UHGV virus genome: UHGV-1960391 | Strand: one strand, 5' to 3' | DNA: 9,574 nucleotides | Source: a virus | Part shown: in pieces, positions 1,878-3,890 of the stretch | Numbering within the stretch: the stretch's first letter is position 1 | Layout: every line of letters starts with the position of its first letter | Notes under the pieces: generated by a model | Database searches by the model: none | What the model saw: the letters and a program-made list of their open reading frames with translations, nothing else | What the model was told of the DNA's origin: nothing | Made by a program: the position numbers and the translations under genes

Positions 1878-3890
1878 TCAGGGACAGTTATTGTCACAAG
1901 TCCAAGGGTCGGCTCCGCCCGCCGCGCGGGAGCGCGTCGTGCGGTGTCGTGAAGCCGACGAAATGAACACAGATTCATAGCTGTTGCCACTTCTGATTTC
2001 ATCTGCGCGGATTTTCTCTGCGGGGGTCATACGGCGGACAACGCACCCCATAAAACGGGTTATGACCGGAACGGGGCCAAACATGAAACCGGAAATCACC
2101 GGCGCGCAGGGTTCGCCGTAACGGTTAATACGGGGCTTACCACCTTCCTGCGGCTGAACGTAAAACGGACGAAGCAGACGTTCAGAACAGAAGAAACCGC
2201 CGTTCAGCAGGATATAGGTCCGGAAATCGCCTGCATCACAGGCCATGCGGATGGCTTCAAGTTCAGCGACCTGCTGCGGGGTGAACTGCTGCATATTGAT
2301 ATGATGCGCCTCAAGCGGTGCGCGGAAGCTGCGCATCTGGCGGTAAGCCGTGACAGACGGAACGCCAAAGAACTGGAAAAGGCGAAGACGCGTTGCTTTC
2401 TGCCAGCAGGCGGCACGGCTGACCGCATCACAGAATGAACGGGCAGAATAACGGTCATTCAGGGAGGCAATACCGTCCGCACTGGCATCGCCCGCCATTT
2501 TGGTGATGTACTTCACGATGTAACGGAAACCGTCGCCCTTTTCAGGGTCAATAGCCTCAATACGGATACGGTGCTCTTCCGCCCCCTTTTCATCCGGCTC
2601 ATCGCGCATGGCCTCTTCACGGAAAATGGCCAGCACCGTTGCGCTCTCATGGGGATTGCAGTAAATCAGGAAATTCCAGTGCGTTGTACCATCAGCATGC
2701 GGCTCAACCGTGCGCAGACCGGGTATCTGAATGCCGGCTTTATCCAGTCTGCGGCAGACCCGCCGCCAGACGGTATTCAGCCAGGCGTGCGAATCCTTAA
2801 TGGTCGGGCAACCTGCTTCCCACCATTTTTTGTTCGGGCGGGAATGCCATTTTCCGGCAACCTTAAAACTGGTCGTCGGGTGAAAACGTGACGGCGTGGT
2901 GAGCACGATGAAGTAACCGGACAACCCCATATCTTCGGACAGTTCACAGACGGCCTTCCCACGAACGCAGAGTTCAGCAATCCGGTTTTTCGGGTTCGAA
3001 ACAGAGGCGTTATGCGCATCTTCCAGCGTACAGACCAGCTCATTAAACGCATCAAAGACGCCGGAGGACCGGAGATACTTTTTCACGCGTTTACTGCGGA
3101 CAGCAAAAAGGTCGCGGTGCCAGTCGGAAATATAAGGCGTGGTGCGGTTCAGTATGCCGAGCATACGACAGACCTCATTGACCCGCTGGTCACGGACAAC
3201 CCGCAGAAAACGGGTGACAAAAGCCAGGTCAGTCAGACGCTTAAGCAACCCCTCATCGCCGTAACGCTCATGATAAGTTGCATAAACGGGCGCGAAATCA
3301 AAGCCGGATATGGCCTGAAAATACGCCATCACATTGAGAAGGTGCTGCTCTGGTACATCACTATAAATGGCCCAAGAAACAAGGCAGTCACGAACAACCG
3401 AATCAGCCACCTCAGCAAGCTGCTCATCAGTGCAGAAAAGCGAGAATTCATAAGGGTCTCCGTCCTGATTAAAGAAAGCGAAACGGTGCGCAGACTCAAG
3501 CGCCATCAGCGCATTTTTCACACCGAGCTGATAAACCAGACGGCAGAAAGCGTGCGCCACGGTGAAGGAAAACGAACCAAACTGTGATACCAGTCCGGCG
3601 GCCCTACCCCTGTCAGCGAGAGATAAATCCGTGCAGTTAATTCCGTAAATCACACGGTCAACCTGCGTGTTACGTGGCAGGGCAAGCTGTGAAGAGAGCA
3701 CTCCGACCTCATCACGATACTGGCGGGAAAGCGTGGAAAGGTTGCGGGTGGCAACATCGCGCTCAGCCTGAAAATGCTCACGTTCGGGCAGTGTCAGACA
3801 AGGACGACCGAGAGCGACGGATGCCGCGTCGATGGCGTTATACGCTGTGAGGATGGCTGATTCAGTCATAAAAACGAATAAAAAACGCAC
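1878..3890 (-). CDS. Rolling-circle replication initiator (gene II position; HUH-superfamily two-tyrosine type)
   Basis: 670-aa ORF (GTG at 3890; alternative ATG at 3869). Contains [12 protein letters not shown] at about residues 455-466, i.e. the YxxKY(x)xK catalytic motif typical of phiX174 gpA / P2 gpA-type rolling-circle initiators, with His-containing segment [14 protein letters not shown] upstream. First gene after the intergenic region, as for gII. Confidence 0.8.

Follow-up and report, generated by a model that had tools for sequence, protein, structure and literature searches.

A gpA-type rolling-circle replication initiator in a filamentous prophage of Escherichia coli and its predicted origin at the 3' end of the rep gene

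The rep gene carried by the virus genome UHGV-1960391 encodes a large protein with two neighbouring tyrosines, which raises two related questions: to which family of rolling-circle replication initiators does this protein belong, and where on the viral strand would it cut? Both were addressed computationally in the whole 9,574-nucleotide stretch available, hereafter called the window.

The rep gene, its family and its surroundings

1878..3890, minus strand: rep open reading frame, 670 amino acids from the GTG at 3890 in the ORF listing
1422..1847, minus strand: next gene, 141 amino acids, PHROG 30648, which follows the predicted origin core in all inovirus-type relatives

The 670-residue reading frame with the motif YIVKYITK, as reported in a preliminary description of this DNA, is real, the ORF listing and the translation of 2499-2522 (minus strand) being in agreement. 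The length given there holds for the frame, but the protein itself is probably 663 residues long with its true start at the ATG at 3869 (residue M8), since the homologues and the gene callers place the start at or near this codon and no Shine-Dalgarno sequence precedes either this ATG or the GTG at 3890. Within rep, no in-frame internal start with a strong Shine-Dalgarno sequence was found that could yield a product like A* of phiX174 or pX of Ff.

The gpA-type assignment proposed beforehand was borne out by profile searches, in which the rep product matched the Pfam family Phage_GPA (PF05840; 165 bits for a gathering cutoff of 31.4 bits, E 2.9e-48, residues 213-464) and PHROG 91, "nicking at origin of replication" (E 1.6e-128, residues 131-670), as well as by collinearity with P2 A. 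The matches thus fell to Rep families and not to a family of other function, and the choice between gene II/CRI and gpA-type profiles was settled for the latter, the Ff gene II/Phage_CRI profile giving no Pfam match to Rep at E <= 1. The Rep_trans profile (PF02486) did not match in the Pfam search either, NCBIfam had no match for Rep or the neighbouring gene products, and a PDB sequence search with Rep returned none; Foldseek against the PDB gave only weak matches, to HUH nuclease domains, and there were weak fold matches to microvirus Reps as well.

In prophages of E. coli, genes 86-99% identical to rep carry the RefSeq name "replication endonuclease", the copies inside filamentous prophages of E. 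coli chromosomes having 91-99% DNA identity, and the nearest protein cluster at 90% identity holds 2063 sequences. A megablast search of the phage collection with the whole window found nothing, its relatives being prophages in E. coli genomes. At the protein level, the best matches to Rep in this collection formed two groups, one of inoviruses (fs2, VFJ, Vaf1, Shewanella phage Dolos and the RstA-like proteins of CTX-type elements; 29% identity to the window Rep over up to 84% of its length) and another comprising PM2 P12, the A proteins of P2-like phages and HP1 Rep. Judged by its sequence, rep is an ordinary member, in an E. coli filamentous prophage, of the known P2 gene-A family of rolling-circle replication nucleases. 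What this family does chemically is well established, as is its presence in filamentous phages. A Rep cluster common to Myoviridae, Corticoviridae and Inoviridae was described by Kazlauskas et al. 2019 (PMC6668415), who also noted that inoviruses frequently exchange replication modules, and fs2 and VFJ are already known as inoviruses with a gpA-type Rep. The window Rep is a catalogued, uncharacterised member. Going by this homology, from which its mechanism is also drawn, the gene would encode the rolling-circle replication initiator of an E. coli inovirus prophage.

The protein had been described as much larger than Ff pII and as bearing an extra N-terminus. Ff pII is, however, the wrong comparator, the size being normal among gpA-type Reps. 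An exhaustive family search gave 1908 clusters at 50% identity, and the 109 family representatives with both motifs have a median length of 588 amino acids (350-831), with the first tyrosine at residue 174-561. Single Reps measure 716 (fs2), 709 (VCE232 RstA-like) and 634 (PM2 P12) amino acids, and residues 152-547 of P2 A, whose tyrosine pair stands at 450/454 of 761 amino acids, are collinear with residues 160-565 of the window Rep at 28% identity. By these lengths, tyrosine positions and collinearity, the size of Rep and its long N-terminal part are normal for the family and not an addition. An AlphaFold (AF2) model of Rep from 53 sequences (mean pLDDT 90) divides the protein into four parts:

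3066..3890, minus strand: N-terminal all-helical region, residues 1-275 (AF2 model)
2481..3065, minus strand: catalytic alpha/beta core, residues 276-470, resembling the HUH-type nuclease fold (AF2 model)
1983..2480, minus strand: conserved C-terminal second alpha/beta domain, residues 471-636 (alignments and AF2 model)
1881..1982, minus strand: tail, residues 637-670, predicted to be disordered (pLDDT below 50)

Residues ~50-213 are common to the fs2 and VFJ Reps, and those from ~160 onward to P2 A. The last codons of the disordered tail (DPWTCDNNC) are the translation of the origin core described below.

The inovirus context originally assigned to the gene stands in so far as filamentous-phage genes lie near rep, with matches to Zot/pI (PF05707), a pIV-type secretin (PF00263, PHROG 1012), DUF2523/pVI and a major coat protein PHROG, but the window is not one phage. 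It is, over 1-9574, the junction of two different filamentous prophage units. The rep gene belongs to the unit at ~10-4464, which is 99.4% identical over 10-4464 to an 8.25-kb tandem prophage of E. coli 377323_2f, while 4369-8487 is ~90% identical to prophages with a Rep_trans-type rep. The window start truncates the pIII-like gene of the first unit. Reading the window as a complete circular genome was rejected because its joined ends give a stop 15 codons past the junction. Both pIII-like genes contain in-frame repeats, with a 27-nt period at 10-198 (GGSTSGGSS) in the gene at the window start and a 12-nt period at 7832-8215 (~120 residues of Gly-Thr/Gly-Ser) in the ORF at 7549-9345 (minus strand); such repeats give rise to spurious long ORFs on the opposite strand, one of which is annotated by PGAP in an E. 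coli relative (L001).

The predicted origin core

1906..1884, minus strand: predicted ori(+) core CTTGGACTTGTGACAATAACTGT, 23 nt, by match to the annotated P2 origin
1908..1959, minus strand: GC-rich stem-loop on the viral strand, separated from the core by 1 nt

The P2 record contains a "nick site at ori" at 29892, in CTCG^GAGTCCTGTCAATAAC within gene A (nick CTCG^GAG), a position that is a GenBank annotation. The corresponding sequence of the window forms the last codons of rep, encoding DPWTCDNNC; the reading frame ends 6 nt past the core, which lies ~40 nt before the next gene. The consensus CTYGGASTYSTGNNAWTAAC has a sole match in the window, an exact one at 1887-1906 (minus strand), for 0.12 chance matches expected with 3 mismatches allowed. 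The predicted nick, CTTG^GAC, most likely falls between 1903 and 1902 on the minus strand, by alignment with the annotated P2 nick.

Of the 21 complete gpA-type rep copies examined, 20 have a single core, on the same strand as rep; the Rep proteins of these core-bearing loci are as little as 27-30% identical, and conservation ends abruptly on both flanks. The loci are the window, three E. coli copies (the full one in L001, L002 and the tandem unit of H15) and others from Salmonella, Xenorhabdus (four), Psychromonadaceae (two contigs), fs2, the CTX-like element of VCE232, the Halomonas group (seven), P2 and PM2. The only one of the 21 without a core is L009 (Xenorhabdus hominickii) at 4001-6439. 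In L009 a secretin fragment follows directly after rep and the 141-aa gene is missing, which gives it the look of a decayed prophage. A full-text literature search for the core sequence returned unrelated primers only. The relation of the core to the reading frame varies among the loci:

E. coli, P2, PM2 and Halomonas group: core read in phase 1, peptide PW(S/T)xxNNC
fs2: core read in phase 0
Salmonella: stop codon within the core, the protein ending ...ALDL*
VCE232 element: core 4 nt past the stop codon
Xenorhabdus: core 195-201 nt past the stop codon

Since the core is read in differing phases, spans a stop codon or lies outside the reading frame, the comparison points to selection acting on its DNA and not on the peptide, which is consistent with the predicted disorder of the tail that it encodes. 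If the core is the nick site, the conserved peptide PW(T/S)xxNNC would be a side effect of the DNA signal. The link between the core and gpA-type rep genes is supported by two natural module swaps. The first involves canonical CTXphi, with a Rep_trans RstA and without the core, and the VCE232 element, in which an ig-1 99% identical to that of CTXphi is followed by a gpA-type rep with the core. In the second, the E. coli prophages L025 and L002 agree in their secretin, Zot and pVI proteins, but the core is missing from L025, whose rep is of the Rep_trans type, and present in L002 with its gpA rep.

The stem-loop 5' of the window core has a folding energy of -22.9 kcal/mol (z -4.1), matched by 0/200 shuffled sequences. 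Hairpins of unrelated sequence occupy the same position in Salmonella, Xenorhabdus, VCE232 and Halomonas NO4 loci (L005, L007, L008, L017), with z from -3.3 to -5.6 in three other inovirus loci; in P2, fs2 and some Halomonas-type loci the hairpin is small or its energy not significant.

For PM2, the record AF155037 annotates a cleavage site at 2253/2254, CTTG^CAGAGTTCACAATAAA (843-844 in the extract L003). The family core is matched far better by CTTGGAGCACTGAAAATAAC, encoding APWSTENNC, at 3508-3527 of the record (2098-2117 in L003), near the 3' end of gene XII, the annotated site being a different and weaker match.

The nick site had earlier been expected in the intergenic region upstream of rep, at 3891-4370, where the following elements lie:

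3902..3969, no strand assigned: inverted repeats TGTTAACAGGTTAACA / TGTTAAACTGTTAACA, built on TGTTAAC, between rep and the divergent 60-aa ORF
3984..4166, plus strand: divergent 60-aa ORF, PHROG 2503

A nick site there has a precedent in CTXphi, whose ori(+) lies in ig-1 with hairpins around the nick (PMC4439123), and the window shares the CTXphi layout of a divergent small ORF followed by a long non-coding stretch with structured DNA, in addition to a weak GGAGTC-containing stretch near 4340-4356 (minus strand). The CTXphi initiator RstA is, however, a Rep_trans protein (PF02486) unrelated to the window Rep, and the family core has no match anywhere in 3891-4918 with 3 mismatches allowed. 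A search for the P2-like decamer GGAGTCYTGT was likewise empty, and the candidate nick near 4350 (GGAGTC) was dropped. Moreover, the structured DNA at 4369-4649 consists of dif-like recombination hairpins that are not origin-like, and the core accompanies gpA-type rep genes rather than the intergenic region. An upstream nick site is thus considered unlikely, and its earlier placement in 3891-4370 probably wrong, the core being found at the rep 3' end instead.

The TGTTAAC-type repeats at 3902-3969 may rather be operators of the rep promoter region than an origin match; a promoter and terminator scan of 1700-4950 did no better than on shuffled sequence. Together with the 60-aa ORF, the repeats have a layout resembling a repressor-operator switch such as rstR/ig-2, the repressor gene rstR of CTX-type phages lying at the equivalent place. 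The region 3891-4370 also includes the start of the two dif-like hairpins. These are 96-nt near-palindromes (4369-4464 and 4554-4649) that as single-stranded DNA would form long hairpins (-39.4 and -38.0 kcal/mol, z -11.9 and -10.3). In each stem, two half sites resembling those of dif (AGTGCGYAYAA, four copies in all) are paired in inverted orientation, and a bulge of 5-6 nt takes the place of the dif central region. The pair looks like a CTXphi-type XerCD attachment site, and similarity to E. coli prophages breaks exactly at the two elements.

The active site and the proposed mechanism

2499..2522, minus strand: two-tyrosine motif YIVKYITK, residues 457-464 (Y457, Y461), in predicted helix 455-466
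2661..2705, minus strand: metal-binding motif, residues 396-410, with E396, H398, D400 and H404 invariant

Alignments of 5, 32 and 53 homologues show no variation at Y457, K460, Y461 and K464, and the tyrosine motif is therefore not a chance match; Y457 and Y461 align with Y450 and Y454 of P2 A. In the metal-binding motif the second histidine of HUH is replaced by Asn406, giving H404-W-N406, which departs from the strict His-hydrophobic-His pattern. The AF2 model has the segment THWNFLIY on a beta-strand that faces the tyrosine-bearing helix (455-466), an arrangement like that of the HUH-type nuclease fold.

With an asparagine in place of the second histidine, and with a relative as clearly decayed as L009, it could be argued that the H-W-N Rep is catalytically impaired and the prophage a passively inherited remnant, or that the protein has another role. 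This is very unlikely. Asparagine stands at position 406 in all of 32 homologues, down to 33% identity (from E. coli, Salmonella, Morganella, Providencia, Xenorhabdus and a Psychromonadaceae MAG), and these retain all the remaining catalytic residues, which argues for purifying selection on a working site; H-W-N recurs in three other, unrelated family representatives; and the rep unit occurs in E. coli as 8.25-kb tandem copies with intact genes, besides the large 90% cluster mentioned above. Asparagine occupies the second-His position in 8 of the 119 family representatives with a recognisable motif, the more distant relatives of Rep having H-W-H, and in every N406 locus with flanking DNA rep is followed by the same 141-aa gene and accompanied by genes for inovirus morphogenesis. 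From these alignments we read Asn406 as a tolerated variant of the metal site and not as an inactivation, activity being assumed. The H-W-N clade of enterobacterial inoviruses and the predicted origin common to the family are the two modest new points of this analysis, and the natural variant could serve to test the need for the second histidine.

It is highly likely, from the comparison with P2 and the other core-bearing loci, that the window Rep is a gpA-family initiator that cuts at the core at the 3' end of rep and not in the upstream intergenic region. In the proposed mechanism, Rep would bind at the hairpin and core, as deduced from P2 and phiX174. A metal site made of E396, H398, H404 and N406 would work with one tyrosine (Y457 or Y461), which would cut the viral (gene-sense) strand at CTTG^GAC, 1903/1902, with Rep staying on the 5' end. 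Host polymerase and helicase would carry out one round of synthesis with strand displacement; once the site was regenerated, a cut by the second tyrosine would allow the displaced strand to be resealed. The cut site would be CTTG^GACTTGTGACAATAACTGT (1906..1884, minus strand), in the last rep codons and 3' of the stable hairpin. P2 A acts in cis, and an origin inside rep fits such cis-action. That the core is not the nick site but serves in Rep binding, in termination or as a signal to the gene downstream is very unlikely, for although in inovirus-type loci the next gene invariably follows 30-90 nt beyond it, in P2 and Halomonas-type loci it is 350-640 nt inside the reading frame and far from gene starts, and the annotated P2 nick falls inside it.

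In more general terms, it is rather likely that all gpA-type Reps (P2-like, PM2, inoviruses) use one near-invariant 23-nt nick core, with a hairpin 5' of it, in or just past the rep 3' end, PW(S/T)xxNNC being merely its translation, and that the enterobacterial inovirus clade uses Asn for the second HUH His. If true, a simple sequence rule would apply to origins next to gpA-type rep genes, the sequence itself would directly reveal the origins of thousands of prophages, and the cleavage site annotated for PM2 would have to be revised. A specific origin position is predicted in this way for common filamentous prophages of E. coli, Salmonella and Xenorhabdus. The protein itself matters little, its family being known and near-identical copies being named in RefSeq.

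Comparison with known systems

The gene II protein of Ff (M13/f1) also nicks the viral strand of a filamentous phage, but it belongs to the Phage_CRI family and its origin is intergenic. CTXphi RstA has the same gene position, in an integrative filamentous phage with dif-like attachment hairpins; it differs in being a Rep_trans protein (PF02486) of unrelated fold with its origin in ig-1. Canonical RstA (L024 1282-2361; 359 amino acids) matches Rep_trans PF02486 at E 9e-19 and is not of the HUH/gpA family, although it is described as an HUH endonuclease in PMC4439123. In VCE232 the "RstA-like" protein of 709 amino acids, encoded behind the nearly identical ig-1, is gpA-type.

Protein A of phiX174 shares with the window Rep two tyrosines one helical turn apart. 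The phiX174 origin ends in AATAAC. There is no direct sequence match between the two proteins, phiX174 A being far more distant than P2 A, and a review (PMC5714925) places phiX174 A in this same Pfam family as its prototype.

The Reps of fs2 and VFJ and the RstA-like protein of VCE232 belong to the same family as the window Rep, in a filamentous context and with a similar size (709-716 amino acids; 29% identity over 84%). In fs2 and VCE232 the origin core is likewise at or just past the rep 3' end. These Reps differ in the host order and in their motifs, H-N-H or H-H-H, and the core is in another frame in fs2 and past the stop codon in VCE232. P2 protein A, finally, comes from a tailed dsDNA phage, its reading frame runs ~140 codons past the origin and its motif is H-W-H where the window Rep has H-W-N; the two proteins nevertheless share the EPHxDGxxHW motif, the YxxKYxxK pair and the same origin core, within or at the end of rep.
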